Positions 15,873 through 46,400 of a stretch of DNA of 64,000 nt are shown here, one piece after another; the stretch's first letter is position 1; every line of letters starts with the position of its first letter. The notes beneath the pieces were generated by a model, which was not told the DNA's origin, ran no database searches, and saw only the letters and a program-made list of their open reading frames with translations. Source of the stretch: a virus (taxonomy: Duplodnaviria > Heunggongvirae > Uroviricota > Caudoviricetes). Made by a program: the position numbers and the translations under genes. Location of the stretch: IMG/VR virus record IMGVR_UViG_3300010049_000010, positions 749 through 64,748 of that record. The stretch is one strand, 5' to 3'.

Positions 15873-16658
15873 ATGTTTCAAGAATTTAAAAATGATCCTT
15901 TAGATATGCAAAAAAGGCAACAAATTAGTTTCTCAGATGAATTTGTTTTTCGCAAAGCTAGAATTTATAAATGCATGGGTCCTGAAGATGATAGACTTCA
16001 AGTGCAAGTATTGCCTGAATTACAAGGTATAGATGAAGAAGAAATGGATGACATGCCAATTTATCCATCATTTTATAAAGGCACTGTTATTGTTGGAAAA
16101 GATTATGTAACACATGGTGATTCAGCTGAATTTGTTTGGGTTATTTGCACTGCTGATTTACAAGTTGGATATATTTTAGGTAAATCTAACATATTTGGAA
16201 AAATGAATGAACCTTATGCAGGTAGTTATTCTTATAAAGATATAAGAGATTATATAGCTCAAAGACAAGCATTACCAGCTGATTTTGATTACAAGCATCT
16301 TATGGTGACTCAGTGGACATCAACTGATCAGGGTGGGATGTTTCAATGTTATAATTACATGACAGGTGATTGGTTCTTATTAAACACCTCAGGTTCAATT
16401 ATTACAGTTCAACAACAAATGATTTATATGAGAGTTGGCACCCCACCTGACCCGCCAGAATCAGGGCCTGCTGCATTTAGCGCAATAACGATTACATCAG
16501 ATATTTTAACGTTAAAATCTCCTAACATAGTTCTTGACGGACAAGAAGTTTCCCTCGGTAGTCACGGATTAAAATTAGCTGCGATGTTAGGATCAATACC
16601 GGCAACTACTGGAAACGGTGGTGGAATGGTATTCCCAATAAGCAATATTTCTACTTAA
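15873..16658 (+). CDS. Baseplate spike protein (gp5/gpV OB-fold-like)
   Basis: DDRLQVQVLPEL...VWVI...GYILG fits the gp5 OB-fold pattern, followed by short beta repeats; lies immediately after the hub-like gene. Confidence 0.5.
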   Translation: MFQEFKNDPLDMQKRQQISFSDEFVFRKARIYKCMGPEDDRLQVQVLPELQGIDEEEMDDMPIYPSFYKGTVIVGKDYVTHGDSAEFVWVICTADLQVGYILGKSNIFGKMNEPYAGSYSYKDIRDYIAQRQALPADFDYKHLMVTQWTSTDQGGMFQCYNYMTGDWFLLNTSGSIITVQQQMIYMRVGTPPDPPESGPAAFSAITITSDILTLKSPNIVLDGQEVSLGSHGLKLAAMLGSIPATTGNGGGMVFPISNIST

Positions 16659-25294: not shown

Positions 25295-25489
25295 TTAGTT
25301 ATTTTCTGAGAGATTATACTCCAACCTTTGAACAAATTCTTCTTGTTTGCCGTCGTTAAAGTTTTCTACAGGCCTGTAATAACCAGATACTCTAGTATAA
25401 ACTTCGGCAGTACCCTCACAAAGATGTGGATTATTTAACTTATCTTGTATTTCTTTTATTTGATTATCAATTTTTTCAATTTTAGACAT
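25295..25489 (-). CDS. nrdD: Separate glycyl-radical (C-terminal) module of class III RNR
   Basis: EVYTRVSGYYRPVENFNDGKQEEF is the NrdD Gly-radical loop; own GGAGGAG SD inside the upstream gene. Confidence 0.85.
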   Translation of the reverse strand: MSKIEKIDNQIKEIQDKLNNPHLCEGTAEVYTRVSGYYRPVENFNDGKQEEFVQRLEYNLSENN

Positions 25490-27323
25490 TTTCTCCTCCT
25501 ATTCCAAATCCTTCCATTACATGACATTGTGGTTCATTAACTAAATTTAATAATTCATTTTTCTTTGATTCTAAATCACGTAATTTAGTAGTATATCCTT
25601 CGATAGCTTCTTCTTTGCAATACGGGCATATTCCCCTCGTATTTCCCTTAATAAAACCATGTATTTGACAATGGCTAAAAGTAGGCGTTATAGTAAGATA
25701 TGGAAATTTTGTATTATACATTACTTTTTTAACGAACTCTTTAGTTTTTCTCCAATCATCTAATCCGTCGCCGATATAAGTATGAAATGTTGTTCCGCCT
25801 GTATAAAGCGTTTGTAAATCTTGTTGATGCATAATTGCATCCCAAGGATTATCAGAAAAATTTACAGGAAGATTAGACGAATTAGTATAATAAGGCCGCA
25901 TCATTGAGCCCGCGGTAATAATATTTGGATATTTTAACTTATCATGTTTTGCTAATCTGTATGAACAAGATTCAGCAGGACTTGATTCTAAATTATAGAG
26001 ATGTCCAGTTTCTTCCTGAAAATCTGAACATTTTTTTCGCATAAAATTTAATACGTCTATCGCTAATTGTTTTCCTTCTTTTGTAGAAATATCCCAATCT
26101 TTCTTTTTAGTATTACGGAAATAATTTCGGCAAAGCTCGTTCATACCAACTAAACCAATTGTGCTGAAATGATTTTCATATTTAGCTTTAAGATATCTTT
26201 TAGTATAAGGATATAATCCCCTGTCAAATAAATCATCTAATCTCACACGTTTCTGTTCAAGAGATTTTTTAGCGATTATCATTATAGTTTCAATACGTTC
26301 GAATAATTCTTCTTTTGTATGAGATAGAAATCCAACTTTTGGTAAATTAAGAGTAACGACGCCGACTGACCCAGTATTATCTCCGCTTCCAAATAATGAG
26401 CCATTTTTTCTTGTAAGTTCTCTTAAATCTAATCTTAACCTACAACACATAGATCTAGCATCTTCTGGTTTCATATCACTATTTACATAATTACTAAAAT
26501 AAAAAGAACCAAATTTTCCAGTAAGTCTATAAATGCGTTCTTCAACTTCTGGGTCTAAATGTTCAAAAAATGCGGGTGTGCAATTTAATGTTGGAATTGG
26601 ATATTGAAAAGTGTTTCCGGAAAAATCACCTGATTCAAAAACGTCAAAAAACGCCTTGTTAAATAAATTCATTTCATTTTGTAAATCACCATATTTAAAA
26701 GACATTTTTTTCCCGCCAATATTTGGATGTTTGTCTTTTAAATCTTCGGGCACTGTTAAATCTAAAGTGACATTACTAAACGGCGCCTGGCTCCCCCATC
26801 GAGAAGGAGTATTAATGCTAAAACAGAAAAATTGCATGCACTGTTTTACTTCTTCATAAGTCATATTATCTTTGCGTACGAATGGGGCGAGATAAGTATC
26901 AAAACCATTTAAGGCCTGAGCGCCATTCCATTCATTTTGAAGTATGCCCAAAAAGTTTACAAGTTGTTGAACAGCAGTATTAAGATGTTTAGGAGGTCCA
27001 CTATTTACTTTCCCCCTTACTCCGCCTAAACCTTCTTCCAAGACTGTCGCAATAGACCACCCAGCACAATAAGCTGCAACAATCTGTAAATCGTGAATAT
27101 GAAAATCACAACTCTTGTGCGCGTTTCTAACATCACTTGAATAAACTTTATTCAACCAATAATTAGCTGAAACAGTTCCGATTTGATGGAGCATTAATCC
27201 ACCAATACAATAACTTGACGTGCTATTTTCTTTAGTTCGCCAATCCGCCTTATCTAAATAAGAATCCGTAACTTTGATAGGATCTATAGTCACAGGACTA
27301 TAATCGTTTCCATTATCTGCCAT
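25482..27323 (-). CDS. nrdD: Anaerobic (class III) ribonucleoside-triphosphate reductase, catalytic part
   Basis: HIHDL, YCAGWS, SMCCRL, TGSVGVVTLNL, YNLESSPAES, YTGGT and CxxH...CPYC are present. The RVxGY loop and an ATP-cone are absent. Confidence 0.92.
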   Translation of the reverse strand: MADNGNDYSPVTIDPIKVTDSYLDKADWRTKENSTSSYCIGGLMLHQIGTVSANYWLNKVYSSDVRNAHKSCDFHIHDLQIVAAYCAGWSIATVLEEGLGGVRGKVNSGPPKHLNTAVQQLVNFLGILQNEWNGAQALNGFDTYLAPFVRKDNMTYEEVKQCMQFFCFSINTPSRWGSQAPFSNVTLDLTVPEDLKDKHPNIGGKKMSFKYGDLQNEMNLFNKAFFDVFESGDFSGNTFQYPIPTLNCTPAFFEHLDPEVEERIYRLTGKFGSFYFSNYVNSDMKPEDARSMCCRLRLDLRELTRKNGSLFGSGDNTGSVGVVTLNLPKVGFLSHTKEELFERIETIMIIAKKSLEQKRVRLDDLFDRGLYPYTKRYLKAKYENHFSTIGLVGMNELCRNYFRNTKKKDWDISTKEGKQLAIDVLNFMRKKCSDFQEETGHLYNLESSPAESCSYRLAKHDKLKYPNIITAGSMMRPYYTNSSNLPVNFSDNPWDAIMHQQDLQTLYTGGTTFHTYIGDGLDDWRKTKEFVKKVMYNTKFPYLTITPTFSHCQIHGFIKGNTRGICPYCKEEAIEGYTTKLRDLESKKNELLNLVNEPQCHVMEGFGIGGENV

Positions 27324-27356: not shown

Positions 27357-28496
27357 CTAAAATTTGTCATGAGCCCTGTTTACTTTTATGAAAGTTGTAC
27401 ATTTTCCAAAATGTTTTATTTCAGACGCTCCAATATAAGTTCCACAGCTTCTCAATCCACCTAATATATCATTTATCACGTTTTGTACTGGTCCAATATA
27501 TGGCACTTCATATTCAGCTCCTTCACTAGTTCTATATTCATTCATTCCGTTAAAATGTTTTTCTTGAGCAGTTTTACTTGACATTCCATACCAAGTTTTG
27601 TATTTTTTTTCAATAATATTTTCTTTAAATCCATAATGAATATCATTTCCGGGTAATCTGATTTTTTCATAGGTTCCATCATGTTCATATTTCGTAATTA
27701 TCTCGCCCTCACATTCATCTGTTCCCGCTAACATTCCACCAATCATAACAAAATCAGAATTAGCTCCAAATGCTTTTGCAATATCTGCTGGAGATCTCAT
27801 TCCACCGTCTAAACAAATAAATGCGTTAAGTCCATGCGCAACATCAGCGCATTCAATCGCTGCGCTAATTTGTGGATAGCCAACACCAGTTTTTAATCTT
27901 GTTGTGCATGCTGACCCAGGACCAATTCCAATTTTAATAATATCTGCGCCTGCAATAATTAACTCTTGAGTCATTTCTGGAGTGCATACATTGCCCGCCA
28001 TTATTAAATTTTTTGGATATCTATTTCTAATTTTTCTAATATGGTCTGCGAATGATTGCGAATAACCATTAGCAATATCTACACATATTTTCACATTATC
28101 AAATTCATCTTCATCTATTTTAGATAAACAAGCTAATTCATTGCGAAAATAATGAAGTCTGTCTAAATCTATTTCTTTATTACCAACTGTATAAAAACTG
28201 TTTTTAAGAAGTTTTAACAAATAATCTTTCTGTGATCTATTTTTTGCTATTTCCATCCATTGTTCATGATAATGTTTGGCGATTGCGACCAACATATTAT
28301 TCGCTGCGAATCGAGCTGACATCGCAAAATTACCACAAGTCATATTACTTGCGATAATTGGAATGCATTCAAATTCATATTCATGTTTAGTTTTAAATTT
28401 TCTTTCAAGTTTCACTTCTTTACGGGAAGACAATGTAGATCTCTTTGGTTGAATAAGCACATCAACCATGTCAAGTTTAGTTTCTCTGATTATCAT
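27357..28496 (-). CDS. guaC: GMP reductase
   Basis: KIGIGPGSACTTRLKTGVGYPQISA, DIANGYS, MAGNVCT, DGG, WYGMSS and GLRSCGTYIGA. Confidence 0.92.
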   Translation of the reverse strand: MIIRETKLDMVDVLIQPKRSTLSSRKEVKLERKFKTKHEYEFECIPIIASNMTCGNFAMSARFAANNMLVAIAKHYHEQWMEIAKNRSQKDYLLKLLKNSFYTVGNKEIDLDRLHYFRNELACLSKIDEDEFDNVKICVDIANGYSQSFADHIRKIRNRYPKNLIMAGNVCTPEMTQELIIAGADIIKIGIGPGSACTTRLKTGVGYPQISAAIECADVAHGLNAFICLDGGMRSPADIAKAFGANSDFVMIGGMLAGTDECEGEIITKYEHDGTYEKIRLPGNDIHYGFKENIIEKKYKTWYGMSSKTAQEKHFNGMNEYRTSEGAEYEVPYIGPVQNVINDILGGLRSCGTYIGASEIKHFGKCTTFIKVNRAHDKF

Positions 28497-30358: not shown

Positions 30359-30386
30359 AATAATTAGTCTCTATTAACTAAATATT
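30359..30386. promoter_or_regulatory. Back-to-back class A motifs (ACTAANTA) in a 28-nt divergent gap
   Basis: ACTAATTA (minus, 30361-30368) and ACTAAATA (plus, 30377-30384), each 2 nt from its ATG. Confidence 0.75.
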
Positions 30387-33062
30387 ATGGAAGATAAATT
30401 TGAAGGCCAACAAATCTCAGCATTTGTTAAAAATACGGATAAAATTTGGGAAGGAATCCTTATTGTAAGAGATGATGGCACCCAAATAGTCCTCAATGAA
30501 ACTACAAAAAATTGGAAGAAACTCTCTGATTTAGAACATATTAGACTTATAGAAGAAGAAAACTTAGCTGATAAAATTAAAACTGCAAGTGATTCATGGG
30601 CAGGTTTATTAAGTACAACATTCGGTGATGTTGATAAAATTGATCCTTCTAAAATTAAACCAAATAGCGTGCAAAAAGCAACAAAAGACTTAACAGATAA
30701 AGCAGAAGCTACGGGCTTAGATACTCCTAAAACTCCAGAAGAGAGGGAAAAATCTGTAATTGATCATTTATCAAATGCATATATTAAAGGCGAAGAAACT
30801 AAATCAGCTGGAGATCAACAAAAAAATGTTGAAGCTGAAGAAAATATTAATCAATTTAAAAAAGAAATAGGAATGAAAATAGGTGAGTCTTTAAAATTAT
30901 TACATCCATTACTTCGAGAATCAGAAGACACTCATTATGAAATGGATGATGAAGATTTAGAAGAAACTAATGAAGAAACTGGAAATATTCCAGCAGAAGA
31001 AATTAGACAATTTGCTGTAGAAATATTATCAGATGACCAAGTAGATTTAAGAGACGCAATTGCTGATAAGTTTGATTTAGATGATGAAGCTGCAGAGAAA
31101 TATGCGATACAAGCAATGGAAGAATATTTATCCTCAATAGATGATGAAATAGAAGAAGATGAAGATGAAATAGAAAAAGATTTTGAAGAAACTATTGATG
31201 AATATGATGGCGATACAGATGGTCTTTTAGATTATCTTGTAGACACTTACGAAATAGATCCAGAAGAAGCTGAATTTATTTATGAAGAAAAAAGAGGAAA
31301 TCTTACCGAGTGTATTTATGCTTTTGTTGATGTAGTGAAAAAAAGATTAACAGAAGATATTGTTCGATTTATAAAAGATAATGAAAATTTAAGTCCAGAA
31401 GATAAAGAAGAAATAAATAATAAAGCTGGAAAATATCCAGAGAGATCTAAAAAAATAAATTGGCAATCAAAAGAAATAAAAGGTTGGACTAAAGATCAAT
31501 TTTTAGATATATTAGATCAAAAAACAGCATCACAAGAAAAAAGAGAAATTAAACAAGAAATTAAAAGTGGTGATTTAGAAGCAGCTTTTAAAAATACTAC
31601 AATAAAAACTTGGTATAAAGACGATAATATAATTTTAGCATCACCAACTACACATGCAGATTGTGTTTATCTTAATTCGTACAATTGTTTTGGTACAGGC
31701 GCTAAGTGGTGCATTGGCACAGAAGATAATTCGGCCTATTGGAATGATTACGTTTTTGACGAAGGAAAAATATTTATATTTATATATATTAAAAATATAA
31801 ATAAAAAACTTATGACATGTTCTGAATGGAATGGTCGAAAATTTAATATAGACTTTTTTGATGAAAAAGATGACGAATTTAATGCGTCCAGCTTTTCAGA
31901 TGTTTTTAATCAAATAAATGATCCAGAAAGCGGAGTACAAATCGACTCTTCAGAAGAAAAAGAAGAATATAATTATTATGATGATTTAGATTATGATTCA
32001 TGGGGATTAACTAAAGAAGAAATTGAAATAAAAGAACAAAAATCTTTCCCATTTCAAAAAATAAAACCGCTTCCCTCAAATTTATTAGATTCTATTCTTA
32101 AATCTGCTTATAAATTATTTAAAGAATTACCTAATGAAGTTTTAATAAAAGCAGAAAATGATGTAAAAGATGCTGTAAATAATGCTTTTAATAACAAAGA
32201 CAGTGTTACTATAGATGATTTTGAAACAAAAGTTAATGATATAAAATGCGGTGATGGTCTTGATTATGAAGATTGGGATAAAATATTTATTAAATATAAA
32301 GATCAAATAATTAATTATTATCATTATAGATTTATCAATTATCCTTCTGATTACGAAAAAATGTCATCAGGTCTTCTTTGGAATGATGTATTACACGAAA
32401 TATTAAATATTAATGAAAAAAATCTAAGAGCATTTTATAAAAATATTTTAATTGAAATTAAGAAAAAATTAAATATGAACTTTTATACAAATAATAAAAT
32501 GCGTATTGCAGCAGTACAACTTTTTATAAATCTTTTTTCATTACATAAATATGGTATTGATGATGCATCAAGAGCACATGAAAGATTACAATCTGATTAT
32601 GAAGAAAAAGTTAGATTAGCCATAAAAAAGCGCGGCTCTCGAAGTCCAAAAATTAGAGCTGAAGTTAAAGCTTCTATTCCATTACCTATTGATATTAAAG
32701 CCGCAGCATTAAAATTTTTACGAGCTCCAATTAAAGAATCTCGAATAGAAGAATATTTAGATAAAGTAGTTTTACGAGAAGGAGATTTGTTTATACATAA
32801 AGCGCTCAAAAATTCTCCATTACACCAAGCAGCTTCCGCGACATTATCAGGGCCTGGCCAATTAGGCTCAGCTATATTTGATAGACAATACGGAAAACAG
32901 AAGCCGGTTCAAACCGGTCCAAAATTTACTAAAGGAAGATTAGTTAGAAATGATAAATTTGGCGAAGGCATTATTGAAGATTTTTTAGGCAATGGAAAAT
33001 ATTCAGTTCATTTTTATGGGCCCAAGAAAACTAAAACAATGAAGGAAGGGGATCTTAAATAA
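30387..33062 (+). CDS. Multidomain putative prohead-core/internal head protein
   Basis: Acidic N-terminal third; many (L/I)xE junctions (LNET, LRES, LTEC, LTED, IKES, LREG); central SPTT...GTGAKWCIGT...YW module; C-terminal KOW-like segment. Confidence 0.5.
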   Translation: MEDKFEGQQISAFVKNTDKIWEGILIVRDDGTQIVLNETTKNWKKLSDLEHIRLIEEENLADKIKTASDSWAGLLSTTFGDVDKIDPSKIKPNSVQKATKDLTDKAEATGLDTPKTPEEREKSVIDHLSNAYIKGEETKSAGDQQKNVEAEENINQFKKEIGMKIGESLKLLHPLLRESEDTHYEMDDEDLEETNEETGNIPAEEIRQFAVEILSDDQVDLRDAIADKFDLDDEAAEKYAIQAMEEYLSSIDDEIEEDEDEIEKDFEETIDEYDGDTDGLLDYLVDTYEIDPEEAEFIYEEKRGNLTECIYAFVDVVKKRLTEDIVRFIKDNENLSPEDKEEINNKAGKYPERSKKINWQSKEIKGWTKDQFLDILDQKTASQEKREIKQEIKSGDLEAAFKNTTIKTWYKDDNIILASPTTHADCVYLNSYNCFGTGAKWCIGTEDNSAYWNDYVFDEGKIFIFIYIKNINKKLMTCSEWNGRKFNIDFFDEKDDEFNASSFSDVFNQINDPESGVQIDSSEEKEEYNYYDDLDYDSWGLTKEEIEIKEQKSFPFQKIKPLPSNLLDSILKSAYKLFKELPNEVLIKAENDVKDAVNNAFNNKDSVTIDDFETKVNDIKCGDGLDYEDWDKIFIKYKDQIINYYHYRFINYPSDYEKMSSGLLWNDVLHEILNINEKNLRAFYKNILIEIKKKLNMNFYTNNKMRIAAVQLFINLFSLHKYGIDDASRAHERLQSDYEEKVRLAIKKRGSRSPKIRAEVKASIPLPIDIKAAALKFLRAPIKESRIEEYLDKVVLREGDLFIHKALKNSPLHQAASATLSGPGQLGSAIFDRQYGKQKPVQTGPKFTKGRLVRNDKFGEGIIEDFLGNGKYSVHFYGPKKTKTMKEGDLK

Positions 33063-34508
33063 ATGAAATTGACAGTTAGATTGGGACAAACTGTCTCTTT
33101 ATTTGATGAATTAATAAGTGAATATGAAACTTCCCAATTAAACGAAAGAATATCAATAGAAGGAAATAAAGCTAGAGTTATTATAGATGATTTTCAATCA
33201 GTCCCACTATTACAGAACTTAAAAAAATTAGCTAAAATATCTAAAAACTTTTTAGAAGAAATAGAAAGAAATAAATATATTCAAGGAAAATACTTAAAAT
33301 ATTTTAGGTTGATTTCAGAAGACACGCAAAAAACTTCTAACTTTGCAGCTAAGAAAATGGCTCATGAATATTGGACTAAAAAAATACCTCATAAGATTTT
33401 AACTAAGGGAAGAGAAATTATAGATAAATTTGTTGAAGAAGTGAATATAATTTTATCATTTTTTAATAATAAGATTAGAAATCCTTCTGAACAAATTAGA
33501 TATGTACCAGAAATTAAGTGGATTCAAAAACGCCCACGATGGCAGGAGGAGAGTAAAATGAAAACGTTTGAACAAATATTAAGAGAAACCAAATACGGAA
33601 AAATAAATACAGAATGGCTTGAAAAATCTTTAGATGAATATAAAAAGATTGAAACGAATAATGTTGATGAAAATTACAAAAATATTGTAAAAATATTAAA
33701 AAATAATTGGCCATTTAAATTTCCAGTAAAGTTTGTTAAAGAAAACCTGTTTGCCAAGACAGCTGGTAGTATAAAAAGAAGACTTTTATTAGGTCCCAAA
33801 ATGAATTTATCTATTCCGTTTGGAGTTTTAAATCCAGCAGCTGATCAAAAAGATTTTAAATTATATAAAAATATGTATGATACAAAATCTAAAAAACAAG
33901 ATAAAATTGATGCTATGAATAACCATCGCGCGCAAATGGATTCTTTAAAAGATATTTGGCCACAAGAAACATGGGAAAGAGAAAAAAGAAAATTTATTAC
34001 TTTATTTGAACATGAATACACACATTATTTACAGATTAAAGATAAAGAATGGACACAAAAATACGGTGTAACATTTCAAAATTTTTGGAATAAAACATGT
34101 TTTGAATTATTTTCTAGACAATTTGGTGTTGACGTAAGAGAATCATATTTCTCATCTAATTTTGAATTAGAATCTTGGGCTATTGATGTAACACAAGCTT
34201 TATTAAAAGAATATGATTTAGATGAAATAATTAAAATGACTCATAATATACCAAATTTATTTGACGCAATAAGTGAAACAGGTATTGGAGATCATGAAAT
34301 ATCAGAAGAAGAAAATAATTTTTATAAAAGGAATACACCTAGAGGTCATTCTGATGATTTGGTTATAGATATAGAATCAAAATATGATATGCATAAAGAT
34401 AATTTATTACCGATACTTATTGGTATAAAAGAATATAATCCAGAAAAATTTGAATTATTTATAAATCATATTAGAGATTACATAGAGGATAATTATGAAA
34501 TCATTTAA
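33063..34508 (+). CDS. Zincin-motif protein; probably two genes, the second starting at 33558
   Basis: HEYTH plus a distal ELES(WA); internal AGGAGGAG SD and in-frame ATG at 33558 giving MKTFEQILRE. Confidence 0.6.
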   Translation: MKLTVRLGQTVSLFDELISEYETSQLNERISIEGNKARVIIDDFQSVPLLQNLKKLAKISKNFLEEIERNKYIQGKYLKYFRLISEDTQKTSNFAAKKMAHEYWTKKIPHKILTKGREIIDKFVEEVNIILSFFNNKIRNPSEQIRYVPEIKWIQKRPRWQEESKMKTFEQILRETKYGKINTEWLEKSLDEYKKIETNNVDENYKNIVKILKNNWPFKFPVKFVKENLFAKTAGSIKRRLLLGPKMNLSIPFGVLNPAADQKDFKLYKNMYDTKSKKQDKIDAMNNHRAQMDSLKDIWPQETWEREKRKFITLFEHEYTHYLQIKDKEWTQKYGVTFQNFWNKTCFELFSRQFGVDVRESYFSSNFELESWAIDVTQALLKEYDLDEIIKMTHNIPNLFDAISETGIGDHEISEEENNFYKRNTPRGHSDDLVIDIESKYDMHKDNLLPILIGIKEYNPEKFELFINHIRDYIEDNYEII

Positions 34509-35133
34509 TCAAATATATGAATCAACACTACCATCATCAAGTGAAATGTTAACAATGTTAAATATGGGCCCAGAAAAACGACAATCACTTCATGTAGGCG
34601 GAAAAGTTAGATTAAAAAATAGTCCAGAAACGAGAGCGATTATTGAAGAATTTTTTACCAAAGACCTCGGTGGAACTCCTTCAGAATATTGTAAAGTAAA
34701 GTGGTTAATAAAACCTGAATGGAGCAATGTTAAAGATGAGATGCATATTGATAATTTTGAACAAGTACCTTTTGGATTATTTGAGCAAATATTAAAAGAA
34801 GGTCTCTTTGATAAACAACCAAAACTTTGGAGTGAAAAAGGTTTCGATTATTGGAGAGAATCTGATGTTCATGATTGGGTTAAGACTGTAATAATGAGAG
34901 GCACTACTGATCACGGAAGATCTTATACAGATCAAAGCGTAGGTGATACTCATCTCAGTCCAAAAATTGATCCAGGAAAATCACCTAGATGTGCCCATTG
35001 GGTTGGAGTAATAAATAGATTAAAAAAATCTGAATATAGTTTAGAAGAAATTCAAGATGTTATGAAACGAGCTTATATTGGATTAGATGATTTACAAATA
35101 GAACGAGTAGTAAAATACGTCAAGGATTCATAA
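34495..35133 (+). CDS. Putative capsid-targeted internal protein
   Basis: N-terminus MKSFNQIYES; internal FEQILKE at 34780-34800. Confidence 0.55.
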   Translation: MKSFNQIYESTLPSSSEMLTMLNMGPEKRQSLHVGGKVRLKNSPETRAIIEEFFTKDLGGTPSEYCKVKWLIKPEWSNVKDEMHIDNFEQVPFGLFEQILKEGLFDKQPKLWSEKGFDYWRESDVHDWVKTVIMRGTTDHGRSYTDQSVGDTHLSPKIDPGKSPRCAHWVGVINRLKKSEYSLEEIQDVMKRAYIGLDDLQIERVVKYVKDS

Positions 35134-35154
35134 TGAAATCATTTAATCAAATAT
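34495..35154 (+). repeat. 22-nt direct repeat at the starts of two adjacent genes (34495-34516 and 35133-35154)
   Basis: ATGAAATCATTTAATCAAATAT occurs at both gene starts. Confidence 0.9.
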
Positions 35155-35945
35155 GTGAAAGTTCAATTAAAATGAATTCAAATCAATTTAAATTATATAA
35201 TGAACGCCTTGAGAAAAGTTTATACGATAAACTTTTTTTTATGAAACATATTTTTGATTTCGATTTATTTGTAGATTTTGGTTGCGCTAACGGCAGCCTC
35301 ATAAAAGCAGTATTGCCATATCATGATGCAGATTATTTCGGTTACGATTTATCAGAAGATATGGTGTCAGCAGCAAGAAATAATGTGTCAGAAGCTCAAT
35401 TTACGAGCGATTGGTCAGTTATAGAAAAAAGAGTGAAAGAATGCAAAGGAAAATCCGTATTAAATCTCAGCTCAATAATTCACGAAGTTTATTCTTACGG
35501 TGATGAAAGCGATATTAAAACATTTTGGGATAGAGTTCTTAATTCCGGCTTTGATTATATTTCTATACGAGATATGACAATGACTAAAGAAGATTTTGCA
35601 AAACCTGAACCAAAAGATTGGGAAGAAATTAAAGAAGTTTTATATCATACTGAAAATGGTAAAGAAAAAATAGAAATGTTTGAGGATGTATGGGGTCCAA
35701 TTTTATGCCACGGAGAATTTGTTCACTTAATGATGAAATGGAATTACTGGAATAATTACAAACGTGAAGTTAATGAAGAATATCTTGTTACAACAGGTGA
35801 AATAATGGGTCACATAAATAGGTCTGATTATAATATAAAATATAAAAAAGCGTTTGTATTAGAATATCTAAGAGATTATGTTAAAGATTTAACGGATGTG
35901 ACTATAACTACTCCAACGCATATAAAATTAATTTTAGTCAAATAA
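35133..35945 (+). CDS. Class I SAM-dependent methyltransferase with CTS-like N-terminus
   Basis: Motif I VDFGCANG, motif II YFGYDLSEDM, then LSSIIHEVYSY...IRD; N-terminus MKSFNQICES. Confidence 0.8.
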   Translation: MKSFNQICESSIKMNSNQFKLYNERLEKSLYDKLFFMKHIFDFDLFVDFGCANGSLIKAVLPYHDADYFGYDLSEDMVSAARNNVSEAQFTSDWSVIEKRVKECKGKSVLNLSSIIHEVYSYGDESDIKTFWDRVLNSGFDYISIRDMTMTKEDFAKPEPKDWEEIKEVLYHTENGKEKIEMFEDVWGPILCHGEFVHLMMKWNYWNNYKREVNEEYLVTTGEIMGHINRSDYNIKYKKAFVLEYLRDYVKDLTDVTITTPTHIKLILVK

Positions 35946-36338
35946 ATAAGAATCTTTTATAAATTCTTCTACTTGTTTTTTAAACCTTTTTAGATTTCCC
36001 AAATCAGTAGTTATTTGCTCAATATGTTTTTCTAATTCCCGAATTCTTTTTCCTTGTTCATAAACAGTATTCGCATCTGCATAACTATTTCCAACACCTA
36101 CAGCTCCAGTTGAATAAGAACTTCCTGTTCCATAATCTATGCGACCAACTAAAGTATCGGGAAAAACTTGATTGACTTGCGCTAATCCATCATTTATTGT
36201 TATTTGAATATCATCAGGAGCAGGAACGTTTTTATATGATACAGTAAATTTACTTGGGTCATCTTTATCTCTAACAACACTTGAGATAGCTGTTCCTTCA
36301 AAAGCTTTATGTGATTTTAATAAGTCTTCTATGTCCAT
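35934..36338 (-). CDS. Hypothetical protein with C-terminal coiled coil
   Basis: 134-aa ORF preceded by GTTAATATA-N5-ATG. Confidence 0.6.
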   Translation of the reverse strand: MDIEDLLKSHKAFEGTAISSVVRDKDDPSKFTVSYKNVPAPDDIQITINDGLAQVNQVFPDTLVGRIDYGTGSSYSTGAVGVGNSYADANTVYEQGKRIRELEKHIEQITTDLGNLKRFKKQVEEFIKDSYLFD

Positions 36339-36354
36339 TAAAATATATTAACCA

Positions 36355-36382
36355 ATAAAAAAGCCCGACCGAAGTCGGGCTT
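36355..36382 (-). terminator. Terminator after the major capsid gene (cUUCGg loop)
   Basis: On the minus strand AAGCCCGAC-TTCG-GTCGGGCTT followed by TTTT. Confidence 0.92.
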
Positions 36383-36402: not shown

Positions 36403-38322
36403 TTATGGTCTGGCTCTATTGCCTCTTTTTTGGTTGTGATCTTTTAAGTTATCAATTGCGATAAGCGCAAGATATCTTCTGTTAAGAACTGCCCAGTCAC
36501 CATAAGTTGCGATACCAGCTTCTTTGTAGAAGTTCTTTCTTTGGATAATACCAGTGCTGAAGAAAGGAATTAAAGTACCGAATGCGATACTTACGTCATT
36601 TTCAACTGCATCGTTTTTCCAGATACAAAGTAATTCGTTCGTTGGAATGATGTTACTTGGTACTTTAAACAATGGAATACCATCGAGTTCGCCAAATTGG
36701 TGTGAACCAGTTTGATTTTGTTTACCTTTGTTGCTATAACCTGCATTTAAGTGCATATAAGAACAAGCTGATGGACCAGCTACGAGTCGGCTTACGCCTC
36801 CTCTGTTGATTTCATCATAGATTATGTCGCCAACTGCATCAATCGCGTTAACGAATGTTTGTGCGTTGTCTCTATAACCGTCTTTTGTTCCTACTGGATT
36901 CATTTCAGGCTCAACACCAACGTTTGTTGTGTTATAAGCTGCATCAAATACATAGTAGTAGTTAGGGTTATGTTTTGCGTTAGTTTTTGCTACCGCGTAA
37001 GCTAATCTGATTGCTCTGTAGTCTAATTGTGCTCTGATTTCTTGTGAAGCATAACTTACAAGATATTCTTCCGCGCTGATATTAAAGCTTGTGTCAAGTG
37101 TAATTTCAGTTAATTGTGACCAAGAAACACCGATTGAAGTTGGAGAAGGTCTGAACATATATTCATCCATTCTTAATTCTACTTCACCGAGGTAATTACC
37201 TTCGAAATCACTTTCTGAGTTGTATCTACCAAATGCTCTTAATTCAGTTGTTCCTGCTGTAAACCATGCTGGTTTCTTTGCTTCGTCAACGTCAATTTTT
37301 ACAATAAATGTACCAGTAGAAGCTAATTCAGTTGCTAATGCTCCGCCGTCTGTGCCAACTGGATCGTCCCAGTGTGCGCTGTTTCCAGGACCAACTTTTG
37401 GAGGTGCTACTAAGAACTTATCTCTTACTGAAGGTGACTTAACAATAGTTACTGTGAAACCTTCTGCTGCAAAGAATTGGCCTGAGCCTTTGTCTTGAAG
37501 CGCGATTACTTGTTGTTCTACTCTTTCAGCTTTATCTCCAGGATTATATCCATAAAGATAAGTATATCCGTCCATATAAAGCGCGCCATCTGCACCCCAT
37601 TTGCCAGATTCAAAAGCTGCTTCTTGTGTGCATCCTGCAAATCCTGCTGGAACTTTCTTAAATAAGATACCTGCAGTTGTAGATACGCCGAGAGGGCCTA
37701 ATCTTGCTGTCGCACCTTCATTTACGATCATACCGTTCGCCAATTCTTGGTTAATTCGGTCTCTTGTATCTTCATAAAGTGCTTTTCTGAAATCGTCTCC
37801 GTTAAATTCTCCGCCGAGTCCGTATCCCCAAGGATCGTATTCTTCTTTGCCGTAAGCTGAGAGTTGTCCAGGTGTGTCATTAAAACCATCATAATCAGCT
37901 GATTTATCGTTTAATGGGTGTCCATTAGCTGTTTTGCTGAAGAATGGTCTGATGTATTTAATAGAATCTTTTGTTGTTTCCAACGCAAACTCTGTAAATA
38001 CCTTGTTACGAATAATGTTAGGCATAGCAAGTCGTACGAGTCTTAACATATTTTCTGGTGTGAAATCATTCAACGCTGTTGCGAGTTGTGATTCTCGAAG
38101 ACCCTGCATGAAAGCAGTTTGTCTGTCTAAGTTGATAGCGACATTTCGAGCATCTGCGATTGGCATAGTTTTGAGGCCTGCTCCAATTTCTGGAATTCTT
38201 GACCAAGCTTCTACTAATCTGTCAGCTCTAAATTTCTTATCTTCTTTATATAATTGCATTGTAGCATTTTCTCTAAGTCTAGCGTCTGCTTCTTTAGCTG
38301 CTACTCTTTCTTTTAAAGACAT
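36403..38322 (-). CDS. Major capsid protein (T4 gp23-like, HK97 fold)
   Basis: MLRLVRLAMPNIIRNKV, EITLDTSFNISAEEYLVSYASQEIRAQLDYRAI and FGELDGIPLF...AFGTLIPF fit the gp23-family layout. LRE sites lie in the N-terminal arm. Strong SD and terminator. Confidence 0.85.
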   Translation of the reverse strand: MSLKERVAAKEADARLRENATMQLYKEDKKFRADRLVEAWSRIPEIGAGLKTMPIADARNVAINLDRQTAFMQGLRESQLATALNDFTPENMLRLVRLAMPNIIRNKVFTEFALETTKDSIKYIRPFFSKTANGHPLNDKSADYDGFNDTPGQLSAYGKEEYDPWGYGLGGEFNGDDFRKALYEDTRDRINQELANGMIVNEGATARLGPLGVSTTAGILFKKVPAGFAGCTQEAAFESGKWGADGALYMDGYTYLYGYNPGDKAERVEQQVIALQDKGSGQFFAAEGFTVTIVKSPSVRDKFLVAPPKVGPGNSAHWDDPVGTDGGALATELASTGTFIVKIDVDEAKKPAWFTAGTTELRAFGRYNSESDFEGNYLGEVELRMDEYMFRPSPTSIGVSWSQLTEITLDTSFNISAEEYLVSYASQEIRAQLDYRAIRLAYAVAKTNAKHNPNYYYVFDAAYNTTNVGVEPEMNPVGTKDGYRDNAQTFVNAIDAVGDIIYDEINRGGVSRLVAGPSACSYMHLNAGYSNKGKQNQTGSHQFGELDGIPLFKVPSNIIPTNELLCIWKNDAVENDVSIAFGTLIPFFSTGIIQRKNFYKEAGIATYGDWAVLNRRYLALIAIDNLKDHNQKRGNRARP

Positions 38323-39075: not shown

Positions 39076-40408
39076 AATTATTTAGTATCTGATTTGAGAA
39101 CGTCTTTCCTACCAAATTAGACATTAAAGTTTTGCCTAATACTGGTTCTCCTGTAGTTTTTATAATAAGTTTATAAGTATTTTTTACAAAGTTTTTAGAT
39201 GTTACTGAAAGCGCGCACTCATATGTAGATCCTGGATATAGATCTTTTATTTCAAATTGATTAGTGTCTAAAGAACTTATCTTATCCCTTACAATTCCCG
39301 GAACATAAATAACGATACTTTCAAAATTATTTTCATATTGTTGTAATACTTTCCAACCAATAGTGATAGTGTTATCAGTAGTAAGTTCATCTATTTGACG
39401 ATATTCTTCTAAGATACAATCAGGTTCTTCTTCAAAATAACCTTCAACTACATCTGAGATAGTTTCTTCAATAACGTCTTTAGTAAATCTTCCATCATTT
39501 TTCAGATGTTCAGATATTATAATCTCTTCTCCATTTATCTGTATTGGAGCTCTAACTTGAGGTTTCTGTGTAATATTTTGTGGAAGATGAATTTCAGCCC
39601 CTTCTCCATCTGGTGGATTAAAATTATATCCAGAAAATATTGGATTAGGACCAAACTTATTATCTCCCCAAATAAGAGAAGTTTTGTGCGTAAATACTAC
39701 TTCATTATTTTTATTATAACCATAAAGTCCACTAAATCTTACAGGTAATTCTAATCCATCATCTATTTGTTCTATAAGTGTTTGATATGACCTAATAGTG
39801 AATTCACACTTAATTGGAAATATTTTAGATTTTTCTAGCCAATCTTTTTCATTATATTCTACATTACTATCAAAAGAATCTAAAGTGATAAAAACTGGAA
39901 TATCAATTGGATGCCCGCATAAATCATGTTCAACTATAAAATATAATGGGAATTTTGGCTGAGATTCCCAATAGAGTAGTTGACTAGCAATATTTACATC
40001 ATCCCTTCTAGCAAAGAAAACTGTCGCGTTATATTTTATTTTTACAGCTGCAGCTTTAAGAATTAATCCAGTATCTGGGTTCATTTGGCCTAAAACTATT
40101 TGTCCCGCTTGTTGAGTCGCACCTCTATCATCAGCTTCATAAGTTCCAGTTTGAGAATATGCGGCAAATGGTAAACCTAAATTTATGTAATTATAATCTT
40201 GATTTTTAATATCTCCTTGACCAACAGTTTCTACTCGTCTTCTAAAAGCGATGTCTTCTTTTGAATAAACTACTCTGTTTAAATCACCATTAAATAATAA
40301 TTGAGAAAGATAAAATTCCATTCCAAATTTACACATTAAATTTGTATCAATGAAATTATTATTTCTAAGAGATTGATAATATGAGTTTACTTTTACTTCT
40401 TGTGCCAT
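39059..40408 (-). CDS. Tail terminator/completion protein (gp15-like) with C-terminal FN3 domain
   Basis: DIPVFITLDSFDSNVEY...IKCEFTIRSY resembles gp15; NTITIGWK...IKDLYPGSTYECALSV is FN3-like. Confidence 0.55.
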   Translation of the reverse strand: MAQEVKVNSYYQSLRNNNFIDTNLMCKFGMEFYLSQLLFNGDLNRVVYSKEDIAFRRRVETVGQGDIKNQDYNYINLGLPFAAYSQTGTYEADDRGATQQAGQIVLGQMNPDTGLILKAAAVKIKYNATVFFARRDDVNIASQLLYWESQPKFPLYFIVEHDLCGHPIDIPVFITLDSFDSNVEYNEKDWLEKSKIFPIKCEFTIRSYQTLIEQIDDGLELPVRFSGLYGYNKNNEVVFTHKTSLIWGDNKFGPNPIFSGYNFNPPDGEGAEIHLPQNITQKPQVRAPIQINGEEIIISEHLKNDGRFTKDVIEETISDVVEGYFEEEPDCILEEYRQIDELTTDNTITIGWKVLQQYENNFESIVIYVPGIVRDKISSLDTNQFEIKDLYPGSTYECALSVTSKNFVKNTYKLIIKTTGEPVLGKTLMSNLVGKTFSNQILNNYGRSE

Positions 40409-43400
40409 TATGCTATTTCCTCTAATAATAATGAATAACTTATATGATTTAAATTACTTCTATATTGGGCTATTGGGTGAGTTAAATAAGCTACCAATTC
40501 TCCCCTTCTATTAAATAATCCCATCTCAGTAATATCTACAACTCCATATTCTCTATCTCGTTTGTCTAATACATTTTCTTTAGTGTTTAAATAAAATGAT
40601 AAATTTATCTTATTCTGTAATTCTATTTTTGAAGACCAAATATCTCCATATTCTCCGCTTATACCATAAAATGAATTGAGATACTTAATACCATACAAGA
40701 ATTTATATTTATCGTATTGATAATCATCTGGAGGACCATTTACTATAAAGTTTATTATTCCCTCAGTATGATCTATAATTTCAATACTAGATTTTTGAAT
40801 TAGTTTATTTTCTATAAAATTATATTCATATTGTATTGAATTATCTATATCAGATAAATAAGAATTAGTAACAGGCATTTGAATAAAATTATCGCCTTGT
40901 TTTGTTGGCACTGTTAAACTTAAAGATGTGATAAAATCTTTAAATTTTTCATCATAATTATCTTTTATATTGATATTAATGACGAATGGATTTATTTCTT
41001 TTCCTTCAATATAATATTCTGATTTGAACCAATCAATAGTAGTTTTATAAAGAGGCTCTAATAAATTAAGTCTAGGATCAGTAGTTCCATAAATTTCATT
41101 TCGACAATCCCCATATTCATTTCCAACAGGAGACCATTGAATTTGCCCATTTTGAACCCACGGTTTAATAAATATACCATTTTCATCACTTAAGAAAATT
41201 TTAAATCCATCTTTATTAGTCCAGTTATTATTTAAATACATTGGTAATGAATTATTATTATAAATTACATTTCGTATAGTAACAGGCGGAGGTGGATATA
41301 TTTCTGTATTTATAAAAATTCTATCAAATCCAAATAATTTTGTTTCTAAATAACTTACTTCTTGAACATAATCAGGATTATTTAAGTATTTAATTTGAGG
41401 ATAAATAGTATTAAGAGGTAATAATTTCATTCTAATAAAATGGTTTTCACCATCATTTAATTTATCTTCTTTTTCTCCAATTAAATTAAATAAATTGAAA
41501 CGAGAAAAATCATTAGCGATATAGGAAATTTCATTTATATCTTTTCCTTTATATTCTCCTAATATTATTCTTTCTTTAAATTCTATAATACTTCCTTTAA
41601 CATCAGTTAATTCTTTAAAATTTTCAAAAGTAGGTTTATTAAATAAAACATTTCCAAAAAGACCATCAATTAAAATTGGAGTTGTATGAGTTAAGATTTC
41701 TTTCAATTCATTTGGTATTCTTGTAAAAATATATTTTCCTGTCGTAAAATAATCTATTTCAAAAGGAATCGCAGTAACTACATTTAATTTTTTAATAATA
41801 GTATTTCCATTCATTATTACTGACATCATATTATCATTCATAATCATATATTTTTGTCCAGTATATAATTGATCTTTAGAATAAACTTCATATCTTATAG
41901 AATTTCCAATTATCCAATCTTTATTAGTTAAAATTTCTAATTCGTAATTTCTAATATCAAGATTAAAGTTTTCATTATTATTAGTAATTCTAAGATTTCT
42001 TAATGATTGTTCATAATTAATCATTGGAATTGATATAGTTAAATCTTCTGGAATGCCATAACTGTCAACTCTAATAGAATCACTAAAACTTATTAAAGAG
42101 AAATCAATTGAAGAAAGAACTATGTTTCTGCTTATTGTTCTACCATCAAATTTGATATTTGCTATATTATTTCCAAAGAATTCTTCTCTATTAAAATCAA
42201 TAACATCAATATCAACTATTTTTCCGATTTCTTTTAAATAACTAACATCTAACTCATGGGTAGTTAATTTATTATTTTCATCTGTTACGTGAATAAATAA
42301 TTTATTATTTTCAATAGAAGGAATATTAAAATCTTTGCAGTTAAATAAAACTTGTTGATTTTCTATATCATATTCGAATCCTTCAATACTATTATCTAAG
42401 AAATCCATAAATTCTATATTATAAAAATCCCTAATTTTTGTTGAACTTATAGAAATACCAGCTTTACTTAATCTCATTAAAGTAAGCATAATTTTATCTT
42501 CATTAAGTTGGTCTCTTGTTATATCTCGATATAAATAAACAGTTTTCTTTGGAGTATATATATTTAATGGAGCTGATTCTAATTTATAAAGATTATATTC
42601 TACGAAATTATTTTTTTCATATTCTTCTTCAGTTTTATAAAATTTAATTTTATTTTCTTTTTTAATTAAATTTCCATAATCAAATTTCGTGTCTTCATGT
42701 GGGTTAAGCCAAAATAATCCATTTTTGGAATTCATTTTATTACCATACTTATCTGTTAAATAAACATATTCATCAAATCTATTTTTCACTAATTTTCTTT
42801 TAAATGCATGATGGTCTATGTGTTCTGGTCTTTCTAATACGAAATTTTTATTTAAAAGCGAGCCACCATATCCTTTTGGTTTAATATAAATACCATTTAT
42901 TTCTAATCCTTCTTCAACAGGTAATATTATATCTTCAAAGAAATTAAAATTTTCATTATAAAATGAAGTTTGTTCACTATTAAACTCATAAGGCATAGAT
43001 ATATTAAGATAAAAATTAATGTTTCCTTTTATAAATAAAGTTGAATTAGAAGTGTCTAATACATAATATTTATTATTATATAAATAAGGAGCAAATCTCA
43101 TACTTAAATTTTTCTTATAATACGGACCAAACGGACCATCTTTCCGCTCAATATCACTTACTAAGTCAATAAAAGATTGATTAATTTTAATAGGATTTAA
43201 TTCTTTTCTTCTAATTCTATAAGGATTTAATTGAGGATCATCAGTATCTCTGTCCATTTGTGATGCAGTAATAATTTGGTTATCTTCAGTTGGCCATTCA
43301 TATAAAAGATTATTATCTATTAAGAAATTAATTACTTTAGAAATATCATTATTAACATCTATTTGTAAATCTGGATTATTTCTATTAAAGTTTAAATTAT

Positions 43401-46400
43401 GAATTTGTTTAACATCAATTTCAGCCATTAATATTTGGAAATCATCTTGATTTTCTTCTGGTTTATAATCACTTTTTAATAATGGAGCTCTTAATAATGT
43501 TCTATAATCTATATTTTCTGTAATTAGGTCCTTCATCGTAAAATTAGTATCTTGATGATACCAAGGATCTAACATTCTCATATAGTCACCTTTTATATCA
43601 CAAAGATAAATTGGTTGATTTTCATAATTTAAGGATTCTCTGTAATTATGAACTTCTTCATTATTTGCATCTACAAAAGTATCATACTCATATGTATATC
43701 TATTAGTATCTTCAGAAATTGCAGGGATTCCGCGTTTATCTTCTAATCTTAATTCAGGCGTTAAATTTTCTCTTGGAGAATATAATCTATTAGCAAACTT
43801 AGGATCATCTACTTTAATAAATGATCTTACTAAAAAATCTCCATTTGAATCTAAATATTCATTTTTGAATTCTAAAAATCTTGTTGGATTTTCAATTAAA
43901 TTAGAAGATTCAATAGATACTAAAACGTGAACAAATTCAGAACTATTAGCTGGTGTAACTGAGGAAACATATTCAATTATATCATCTCCAACTTTAGTAA
44001 TTCTCGTTCCTCGTTCAATATTAAAATTAAATGGAAGTTCTAAACAGAATTTTTTACTATAGCTTATTTCTAAATTATCTGAATTAAGATATCCATTGCA
44101 TAATACACCATTGTAATTTTCTAATCTAAAATTTTTCCAAGTAGCTTTTAAATCACCAAGTTTTACATTAGACATATTTTTAAGTTGTCCGTCATTAATT
44201 ATGCTATCACCAACTAACATAAGAGTCATAAAACCTAAATCACTAGATCCATTATTAGTACCGCTCTTAAACATTATTCTTATTTCATTGCCAGTTCTAT
44301 ATATAGAATCAGCAAAGATATTTAATGACCCGATTGCATTTAATGAAGGTATAGCTCCAGTTGTTGGTATGTTTACTTCATAAAAAGTTTTTCCTTCGTT
44401 ATCACTAAAGAAAACTACTGGATATTTATTTGAAACAATTCTTGTACCATCACTTGGTAAGAAATTAATTAAAGTTTCTCTTTCAATTCTTCCATCTTCA
44501 GTATCATTTAATCTATTACATTCACTTATTGGAGCTGAAATATAACCTGAGTATATTTGGAAATTATCATTTATGTATTTTCCCATTATAGTAAAATATT
44601 TTGCTACATTTCCAGAAGGATAAACGCCAAAAGGTCTATATTGATTTCCAAAACCAACTGTTTGAGTTTTAATATTTGTAGAAGTTAATCCGTAAACATA
44701 ATTAGTTCCTAAGTTTGTAATATTCCAATTATTATAATTTTCAATATTATCTCTTGATGTCGCTTTTTCTAATGGAAATGTTATTATATCATCTTTATTA
44801 GTTTGAATAATTAATTGCGTATTTGTTAACGTTACATCTTTTATAGTATCATGATTAAAGAAATAATCAACACGTTCTCCTGAACATATAGCTGAGTAAT
44901 AATCCATTAAATATCTGATATAATTTTGTTTTACCATATATTTAGAAACAGTATATCCTAATTCATAAAAAGTTTCTTGAGGACTTGACCATTTTGTTAT
45001 TGCAGCAGTTCTAAAATTAGGAATTTTTCCATTTTCTGTATGATGGAATTCAATTCCATTTAAAGTTATTTCTCTAGGAATATTATCTTCTACAGGGAAC
45101 TCCAAAACATCATTTGCTGTTATCCAAGCCTTAATTGTTTGAGCATCTCCAGATCTATTTCCTAAATATTTCAAGTAAATATCTCTTTGTAATTTTACAA
45201 ACCTATATGCTTGGCTTAAATTTAATTCATCAAATAATTTATAAGTAACATTTATACTTGATGGTAGTCTTGCTCGTTTCCAGTGATAATTATCTGTTAA
45301 TCCATTAGGCAATAAAGCTCTTTCTCTTCCGTCAGTAGTTGGATTTTTTAAGTCCTTTGATATATAACAATTTGTTTTAGTATAAAAGAAAATATCTCTT
45401 CCACTTATAATTACTTGATTATTAAGTGAATTATATGCGGTCCATTTTTTAGCTCTATTCTCATTGTCATTTCCAGTTAATATTTGATACGGTCCTTCTG
45501 TATAAAATTGTGGGACATTTGTAATCGTATTTGTTGTTCCATATTCAGGTATATTATGCGTTAAAATTCTTTTTGGATCTTTAACAGAGAAATCATAAAT
45601 ATGATAACAATTAGGTGTGGCTTGGGCTATATTTATTTCAAATCTAGCACTTGTCACCCCAGGCGCGAGTACAATTGCCGCGATATTTATATTTTGAGAT
45701 ATTTCTGCTCGAGGTAATTTCCATAAAAATTGTCCAGCAATAAGACTATTATAAATATCAGTATGACTATCTTTTGAAAATCTACCAAAATTATGTCCAA
45801 CAACATAAGTTGTTACTTTCGTTTCTTCTAAATTTGTATTATTAGTAATAAAGTTTGTTGATAATATTGGATTTTCTGATACTATCCATCTTTGAAGACT
45901 ATGATTATATATCCAAACTTGATGAACTTGGTCTGTTCCATTAGTTGACAATCTGTTTAATATACCAAAAGAAATTGAAGTTTCTTGTGTTGTCGCAACT
46001 TTTTTGAATGAAAAATCAATTACTTTATAATTATCTAAACCTATTCCTGTTATATTAAAATCTCTTCTAACGGAAATATTATTAGTTCCATTTCCAGTCC
46101 CACTTATAATAAAGCTTTGTTTTTGCGGTCCTGCATCTCTGTCATGGGGTGTCTGAGATCCAGTTCCAGACCACGTAATAGCTTGAGCCGGCTCAACATA
46201 ACTTATCTCGCTAAAAGCGACGTCTCTTGTTATTACATTTTTATAATTTTTTATTAAGTTATCATGTCTTTCATCACCAACATAATTATCTCTAATTTGT
46301 ATAGATTCATAAGTATTTAAGTCTCCACCTTCGAATGGCGCAGCATATATTCTTTCAAGTTTATAATCACTTGCATCTATAGGATCTATTCTCACTGAGA

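Follow-up and report, generated by a model that had tools for sequence, protein, structure and literature searches.

The 64,000-nucleotide stretch considered here (the window) corresponds to positions 749 to 64,748 of the IMG/VR virus record IMGVR_UViG_3300010049_000010, which belongs to an uncultivated tailed phage (Caudoviricetes). Close to the gene of the major capsid protein, the window carries a cassette of plus-strand genes whose modules start with the same short peptide, and similar peptides head genes all over the genome of this phage. We consider it probable that this peptide is a capsid-targeting and cleavage tag of the kind known from phage T4, that it is attached to variable cargo modules of a distantly T4-like jumbo phage, and that some of the cargo is made as small polyproteins. 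The tagged proteins are probably packed into the particle and injected together with the DNA. The source record has 261,131 bp with a G+C content of 31% (CheckV completeness 79%), and the same phage is also present as a 328,413-bp contig. In the following, G000 denotes the genome of this phage (with loci L001 and L010) and G001 a complete 329-kb relative (with locus L011).

Tag sequences and their conservation

Four open reading frames (ORFs) follow each other head to tail on the plus strand (30387-33062, 33063-34508, 34495-35133 and 35133-35945) and code for 891, 481, 212 and 270 amino acids (aa). The last three contain the following features.

33063..33557, plus strand: conserved 165-aa domain, immediately upstream of tag 1 and in frame with it; homologues in L011 and L012
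33558..33587, plus strand: tag 1, MKTFEQILRE; own strong GGAGGAG ribosome-binding site at 33542-33548, seven bases upstream; predicted cut after LRE
33588..34508, plus strand: candidate zincin-like cargo, about 306 aa; HEYTH at 34011-34025, conserved ELE-W downstream
34495..34521, plus strand: tag 2, MKSFNQIYE (the ATG at 34495 opens MKSFNQIYES); predicted cut after IYE
34522..34779, plus strand: module 2a, about 86 aa, no detectable relatives
34780..34800, plus strand: FEQILKE, remnant of an internal tag where two modules are fused; cut expected after LKE
34801..35133, plus strand: module 2b, homologue of a free-standing tagged gene in G001
35133..35159, plus strand: tag 3, MKSFNQICE (the ATG at 35133 opens MKSFNQICES); predicted cut after ICE
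35160..35945, plus strand: class I S-adenosylmethionine (SAM)-dependent methyltransferase cargo; motif I VDFGCANG at 35271-35294

An earlier note on this DNA had described three consecutive units beginning with MKTFEQILRE (33558), MKSFNQIYES (34495) and MKSFNQICES (35133), together with an internal copy FEQILKE at 34780-34800. All four motifs are found at these positions. The three ATG codons are present as well, but the units are less simple than assumed: the first start lies in frame with an upstream domain and the second unit consists of two fused modules. The first 22 nucleotides of tags 2 and 3 are identical, as had been reported, and these two tags look like a recent copy. The domains behind the tags come from different families and folds (class I methyltransferase, LPD3, HD fusion, HExxH protein, acidic proteins), in agreement with the earlier idea that the tag sits on unrelated genes.

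The genome-wide scan that the earlier note had suggested was carried out, and nine of 279 crude genes start with the pattern M[KRQ][ST]F.[QE]I. The chance level, determined by 5000 within-column shuffles of the N-termini, averages 0.014 and reaches 2 at most. If looser variants are included, about 14 tagged modules are spread across the genome, so that the tag is not limited to the cassette as had been supposed. The other tags in the genome read MRTFKQILREA, MKSFSEILQE, MKSFKQILREA, MRTFKQILQES, MKTFAEIYGKPLRE, MKLFENIYNQSLQE, MQTFSEIHKQHLKE and MTFQQIYE. Within proteins, only two copies of the core [ST]F.[QE]I are found among 81,780 residues (window position 33558 and genome position 108322), and both are full MK-tags at in-frame fusion junctions, each with its own ribosome-binding site. 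Apart from tags 2 and 3 with their identical starts, the tags (12 others) differ freely at synonymous codon positions but retain F4, I7 and the terminal E; it is therefore the peptide and not the DNA that is conserved.

The consensus of the tags reads M-K-[S/T]-F-x-Q-I-[L/Y]-x-E, which we take as an amphipathic peptide of 9-10 residues heading each cargo module. The tags end with a hydrophobic residue, any residue and Glu (ILRE, IYE, ICE, ILQE, ILKE, PLRE, SLQE, HLKE), with IFRE and LVRE (and IYNE in G001) as exceptions. In the AlphaFold model of the HExxH protein, tag residues 2-11 form a short, detached helix of low confidence, and in the model of the methyltransferase, residues 1-12 stand apart from the fold, with a predicted local distance difference test score (pLDDT) below 50.

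The T4 genes ipII and ipIII start with MKTYQEFIAE/A (a slash marks a known or predicted cut here and below), as the earlier note had stated and the T4 record bears out. In T4, this capsid-targeting sequence (CTS) loads the internal proteins IPI, IPII and IPIII as well as Alt onto the scaffold core, and the protease gp21, which cuts after Glu, removes it (PMC3012670, PMC5694885; also Mullaney and Black 1996). The tags described here share M1, K2, T3 and E10 with the CTS, and position 4 is aromatic and positions 4, 7 and 8 are hydrophobic in both. The tag would represent this lineage's version of MKTYQEFIAE.

Putative cargo modules, free and fused

The ATG at 33558 is located inside the 481-aa ORF, in frame and preceded by 165 codons without a stop (the ORF is open from 33063). 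These codons specify a conserved domain that is 51% identical to a 175-aa protein of G001 (L011; E 7e-56) and 28% identical to a 140-aa protein of L012 (E 1e-16). A tag-like motif is present at the C-terminal end of this domain in all three phages (window; L011:12459-12986, minus strand; L012:3729-4151), and in the two relatives the tag-like tail (SFEDIYNESIE and TLFEEVFLKMKLAEGS, respectively) is followed at once by the stop codon. A second fusion is seen in the 212-aa ORF, for which a database search at the sensitivity used returned no homologue but itself and no family was matched. Its residues 110-209 align with a 131-aa protein of G001 (L011; 33% identity, E 3e-14) that has its own N-terminal tag, MKTFKQIYES. 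Because of this alignment we read the 212-aa ORF as a fusion of two tagged modules in which FEQILKE represents the second tag without its Met-Lys. Near the portal gene, G000 encodes an acidic module and a 'KHW' module by two genes (L001:3435-5023), and G001 has them in reverse order in one fused gene (L020:17903-19042, minus strand), with a tag-like motif at each joint. The 481-aa and 212-aa ORFs each join two small modules; most of the cargo is encoded by separate genes. Since tags stand at in-frame junctions (165-aa domain and zincin-like module; modules 2a and 2b), some of the cargo is probably made as a small polyprotein that would be cleaved into its parts in the head. Separate production of the tagged module may also occur, as the internal ATG has a ribosome-binding site of its own.

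The relative G001, whose capsid protein is 82% identical to that of the window, contains at least 14 tag sites. Beside its capsid gene lie four tagged genes and a C-terminal tag relic; the cassette on this side reads MKTFEQIFES (65 aa), MKTFNEILKEA (144 aa), MKLFERVFKSS (a YYHGS protein), MKTFKQIYES (131 aa), MKTFNEIYLLNE (183 aa) and, last, the homologue of the 165-aa domain. Both G001 and L013, a related termite-gut phage, have the same tag with different cargo and gene order. A distant member of the clade, the 289-kb contig L015 from a metagenome-assembled genome (MAG), encodes a capsid protein of 47% identity and has two tagged genes beside the capsid gene, starting at 6603 (plus strand) and 8819 (minus strand); their tags, MFKTYQELIE/S and MHKTYASLVKEV (MHKTYASLVKE/V), are even nearer to the T4 tag.

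The HExxH protein behind tag 1 has only three relatives among 1.84 billion representatives. The two clear ones (P0244 and P0245; 44% and 37% identity) are both tagged, one of them with two tags in tandem. H152, E153, H156, E203 and E205 are invariant in the family (3 members), and the ELE-W motif follows 50 residues past HExxH. Over the HExxH region the relatives show weak matches to MPTase-PolyVal (E 0.096) and Peptidase_Mx (E 0.013), both below threshold, and the window protein itself matches no curated peptidase family above threshold. The motif falls within helix 136-161 of a low-confidence model (pLDDT 56), with which fold searches gave weak helical matches only, speaking neither for nor against a zincin fold. 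Of the zincin assignment made in the earlier note, the conserved HExxH stands, beside the two sub-threshold Pfam matches, and we slightly favour the assignment over its opposite. Tagged proteins outside the window comprise one with an LPD3 domain (38.9 bits, above the cut-off), one HD-domain fusion and three YYHGS proteins with weak, sub-threshold matches to ART-PolyVal.

The call of a class I methyltransferase behind tag 3 is solid. In addition to motif I, the protein matches Methyltransf_25 (27.5 bits; cut-off 27) and also Methyltransf_12, and its model is confident (pLDDT 89; predicted template modelling score, pTM, 0.84). A fold search returned at least 500 PDB matches with E <= 0.001; among the matches listed all are class I methyltransferases, with template modelling (TM) scores of about 0.5. 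The best matches are mixed in their substrates and include enzymes acting on small molecules (MppJ, MrsA, UbiG), peptide (BamL), protein (PKMT1) and RNA (Hen1), and a search of the NCBIfam equivalogs gave no match.

A total of 174 homologues of the methyltransferase was found. Among 120 of them, about 85 begin at the conserved core (including a protein from a Lachnospiraceae MAG) and about 27 have a leader of 10-14 residues. The nearest relative, in the termite-gut phage L013, has the leader MKTFEQIYRLKE and adjoins another tagged gene; directly ahead of this tagged methyltransferase lies a gene for S-adenosylmethionine decarboxylase (L013:3600-3986, PF02675). Other leaders read MKSFKQFVTEE, or are of the type MKILNWQLFLEE followed by LVGE. 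A large group of about 20 database proteins (P0030, P0053 and others), together with L014:10001-10837, is found on other large contigs and has the leader M[KR]ILNW[QK]LFLEELVGE, which may be the loading tag of another lineage; the genes next to the methyltransferase in L014 do not have this leader. The earlier note had named a lack of tag conservation on orthologs as a point that would speak against its reading. The tag is kept on both clear HExxH relatives and on the nearest methyltransferase relative, so the reading was not refuted here.

Capsid protein, head protease and neighbouring genes

If the tag directs proteins into a T4-type head, a capsid protein and a protease of the same type are of interest. 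The relevant features are these.

36403..38322, minus strand: major capsid protein, T4 gp23 family, 639 aa (Atlas clusters and homologues)
38092..38100, minus strand: predicted capsid maturation site, L75-R-E77 then S78; L-x-E conserved
Genome 245077-247203 (L010:3946-6072), outside the window: gp21-type head protease, 708 aa; C-terminal approximately 450 residues coiled coil

The nearest Atlas clusters of the 639-aa protein are Gp23 (score 0.96, 218 of 256 features). It has more than 388 homologues on contigs of up to 442 kb, many of which, at 46-78% identity, have PF07068, and we identify it from its sequence as the T4 gp23-type major capsid protein. The motif [L/M]-x-E, followed by [S/A/T/N/M]-Q, is present in 106 capsid homologues of 45-100% identity; L-x-E is invariant, with R, K, N, T, S or D at x. 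The site precedes ENMLRLVRLAMPN by 22 residues, and in T4 gp23 the segment FLTE/AEIGG stands ahead of MVRRAIPNLIA; placed by eye, the L-x-E site would coincide with the LTE/A maturation cut of T4. The L-R-E of the capsid site is the same L-R-E that ends tag 1.

Profile searches of G000 and G001 with PF03420, PF07068 and phrog_207 gave no match, and neither did phmmer searches with single T4 head proteins. A custom gp21 hidden Markov model (HMM) was built from seven proteins (T4, RsoM2USA, S-RIM2, JA15, RaK2, TH47 and OC) and run with all filters off against every ORF of both genomes. It found one ORF per genome, at 245056-247200 in G000 (E 5.4e-9) and its counterpart in G001 (E 4.3e-7). In the alignment with the T4 motifs, NGNKRVYP, GLADHP (His), TSSSGFG (Ser) and LADLVLNPS (Asp) are kept. 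When the protease domain is scanned on its own with hmmscan, it matches the family to which T4 gp21 belongs (phrog_207, E 1.5e-10); its match to Pfam S77 (E 0.009) stays below the cut-off. We regard the 708-aa protein, as far as its sequence tells, as a protease-scaffold fusion. It starts with MEKLRE/S and the next gene with MAKRLRE/D; T4 gp24 starts with MAKINELLRE/S. A tagged gene, MKTFRQIYQINKLQE, is located two genes upstream of the G000 protease on the same strand, and another one close upstream of the G001 protease.

G001 shows a weak match to the T4-type portal (PF07230, E 5e-5, below the cut-off), and its likely counterpart in G000, picked by eye from the ORFs, is L001:7736-9997. Tagged or L-x-E-rich proteins, some of them acidic and scaffold-like, adjoin the portal and protease genes. 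For the capsid protein, the methyltransferase and the HExxH protein, searches by sequence among solved structures gave no match, whether with single sequences or with a profile.

The surroundings of the cassette and of the capsid gene contain four further features.

30377..30386, plus strand: box aactaaatat, promoter-like, directly before the ATG of the first operon gene
30387..33062, plus strand: 891-aa acidic mosaic protein, first operon gene; N-terminal part kept in L011 (640 aa) and L012 (391 aa)
35934..36338, minus strand: 134-aa gene (ORF call), 3' of the capsid gene and convergent with the cassette, whose end it overlaps by 12 nucleotides
36361..36382, minus strand: strong intrinsic terminator just past the capsid gene; 9-bp stem with 6 GC pairs, then TTTTTATT

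The cassette had been described as convergent on the major capsid gene. The capsid gene is indeed nearby on the minus strand, but the 134-aa gene, whose product ends in KDSYLFD, and the terminator lie between them. Boxes like that of the operon (actaaataat or aactaattat) are found directly at the ATGs of the capsid-module genes at 39075 and 54117 (minus strand), which hints at, and does not prove, co-regulation of the operon with these genes. Pfam and PHROG scans across the neighbouring genes are almost empty: family scans gave no match for the 891-aa protein, and the neighbouring 449-aa, 199-aa and 134-aa genes have no family match in Pfam or PHROG, the 449-aa protein having a weak FN3 match only. 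Searches with blastn and tblastn against the phage collection yielded nothing useful on relatives.

Two giant ORFs of 4569 aa (40408-54117, minus strand) and 2384 aa (16655-23809, minus strand) are also present in the window. The former belongs to the capsid module and is preceded by the same promoter-like box; the latter contains a tag-like LSFFNILE/S around residue 58. Elsewhere the window encodes an NrdD-like anaerobic ribonucleotide reductase (25482-27323, minus strand), a dehydrogenase (27357-28496, minus strand), a homing endonuclease (56556-57113, minus strand) and a DNA methyltransferase (62190-63209, plus strand; phrog_67, E 2e-53).

Proposed mechanism, alternatives and known systems

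We propose the following course of events. The operon (30387-35945) would be expressed, and the tag would attach the proteins to the scaffold core while the prohead assembles. The gp21-type serine protease, itself fused to a coiled-coil scaffold region, would then cut after the Glu of [I/L]-x-E, and would cleave the capsid protein at its L-R-E likewise. The trimmed cargo would remain in the head, enter the host with the DNA and act before phage transcription. The cassette in the window would be one of several variable cargo cassettes of the phage, and its cargo would consist of a probable zincin-like metallopeptidase, two small modules and the class I SAM methyltransferase.

Several points weigh against this proposal. 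The endings IYNE and IFRE break a strict rule of Leu or Ile at P3, and [I/L]-x-E is common in a proteome rich in Lys, Glu and Ile, so that the cleavage motif taken alone is weak proof. A purely N-terminal leader does not explain the C-terminal tag-like tails of the 165-aa family. At least 14 cargo species, several with metabolic-looking neighbours (HD, nucleotidyltransferase), are many for head cargo. The matches to Pfam S77 and PF07068 are below the cut-offs, and kinship with T4 depends on the PHROG match, the custom HMM and transitive homology; the capsid segments were matched to the T4 cut by eye, with no alignment tool. The promoter-like box also occurs upstream of other genes and is not specific to structural ones. 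Finally, the T4 system is known from experiment, whereas that of this uncultivated phage is known from its genes alone.

The strongest competing explanation is that the peptide serves for docking or processing and that its partner is not the prohead. This partner could be a hub protein or a chaperone, or the peptide could be a regulatory N-terminal propeptide removed by the protease or by another enzyme. In this case the proteins would have their role within the infected cell, with no injection. The C-terminal tag-like motifs and the location of several tagged genes among metabolic-looking genes fit such a partner. What makes it unlikely in our opinion is the position-by-position match of the tag to the T4 CTS, the occurrence in the same phage of the matching protease family and of a capsid protein whose site is of the same type, and the tags on acidic scaffold-like proteins that adjoin the portal and protease genes.

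The two remaining explanations fit poorly. The common start could be a DNA or RNA element, either a recombination linker or a favourable translation-initiation region, and the peptide would then have no targeting role. This agrees with the 22-nucleotide identity of tags 2 and 3 and with the reordering and fusion of tag-bounded modules between G000 and G001, as expected for recombination at the tags. However, the variation of synonymous sites around the kept residues indicates that selection acts on the peptide, A/U-rich starts would not account for the constancy of Phe, Ile and Glu, and recombination at the tags is expected under the targeting model, too, as in the T-even internal-protein genes (PMC3012670). 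A cause in the DNA only was rejected on the ground of the varying synonymous sites, and we consider this class of explanation improbable. That the N-termini are the remains of a single paralogous family that has diverged, or are alike by chance, is suggested by the shared start alone and appears very improbable given the unrelated folds and families downstream (for which a paralogue family was rejected as the cause), the nine genes observed against 0.014 expected and the mostly leaderless methyltransferase homologues.

Beyond the capsid-targeting tag that we prefer, a bolder reading can be formulated, which we offer tentatively and do not expect to hold in full. The tag could be a universal 'cut-and-load' joint, usable at N-terminal, internal and C-terminal positions, for building, shuffling and fusing effector modules. 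The head protease would turn mosaic precursors into injected enzymes that are predictable from sequence, including a methyltransferase family that was independently fitted with leaders in several unrelated phage lineages. If so, lists of tagged genes from metagenomes would be a catalogue of injected phage effectors.

Even the more modest reading has consequences. If the tag acts as in T4, the proteins that a giant phage injects can be listed from its genome even though it is uncultivated, and the methyltransferase, the probable metallopeptidase and the ADP-ribosyltransferase-like proteins could act on the host before any phage transcription. It would link the T4 internal proteins with the effector repertoire of 'polyvalent proteins', which so far have been treated separately, would point to one methyltransferase family repeatedly given short leaders by different phages, and would offer a short, portable loading tag. 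The T4 internal-protein system itself was already known; the present analysis adds the protease, the conserved capsid site, the anatomy of the fusions and the leader-bearing methyltransferase family.

Among other jumbo phages, phiKZ, 201phi2-1 and SPN3US pack many internal proteins that are processed after Glu by a gp21-related protease (PMC5694885, PMC7411985, PMC10052503). Their propeptides mostly exceed 100 residues and have the motif A/S/G-x-E, whereas the tags here have 9-10 residues and the T4-type [I/L]-x-E. The earlier note had called a virion-delivered methyltransferase of this family unusual. There is a precedent in phage P1, in which the methyltransferase-helicase DarB and DdrB are packaged in the head, so that a virion-carried methyltransferase acts on entry (PMC5512222), but DarB belongs to another family. 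DarB, in which a large DNA adenine methylase is joined to a helicase, is loaded through DarA/Hdf, with no short cleavable tag; the enzyme described here, a class I methyltransferase of 260 aa, lacks a DNA-methylase signature.

Polyvalent proteins, known from phages and conjugative elements, are effectors predicted to be delivered with the DNA, to act in the first moments of invasion and to be freed by proteolysis (Iyer, Burroughs, Anand, de Souza, Aravind 2017; PMC5512222). The putative cargo of the present phage resembles them in its candidate zincin-like metallopeptidase, its proteins like H-Y-type ADP-ribosyltransferases, LPD3 and methylase as a broad class, and in its predicted role. The methyltransferase is not a DNA adenine methylase of the DarB type. 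Polyvalent proteins are giants, whereas most of the cargo here consists of separate small tagged proteins and a few two-module fusions. Their release is attributed to an embedded MPTase; here it would be achieved by the head protease at the tag sites.

The closest parallel is T4, to which this phage is only remotely similar. It differs from T4 in having at least 14 tagged modules instead of a handful, tags that are also found within ORFs where modules join and as tails at C-termini, and a protease fused to a long coiled-coil scaffold region. The T4 internal proteins are small and basic, whereas a class I methyltransferase, a zincin-like protein, an LPD3 protein and ART-PolyVal-like proteins are tagged here. 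Apart from the CTS, the T4 internal proteins are highly diverse and their genes vary among the T-even phages (PMC3012670). Common to both systems are a tag of about ten residues on unrelated proteins, a set of such proteins that varies between related phages, a protease of the gp21 family and a capsid protein of the gp23 family that contains an L-x-E site, and with Alt, T4 provides the precedent for an enzyme that is loaded by means of a CTS.

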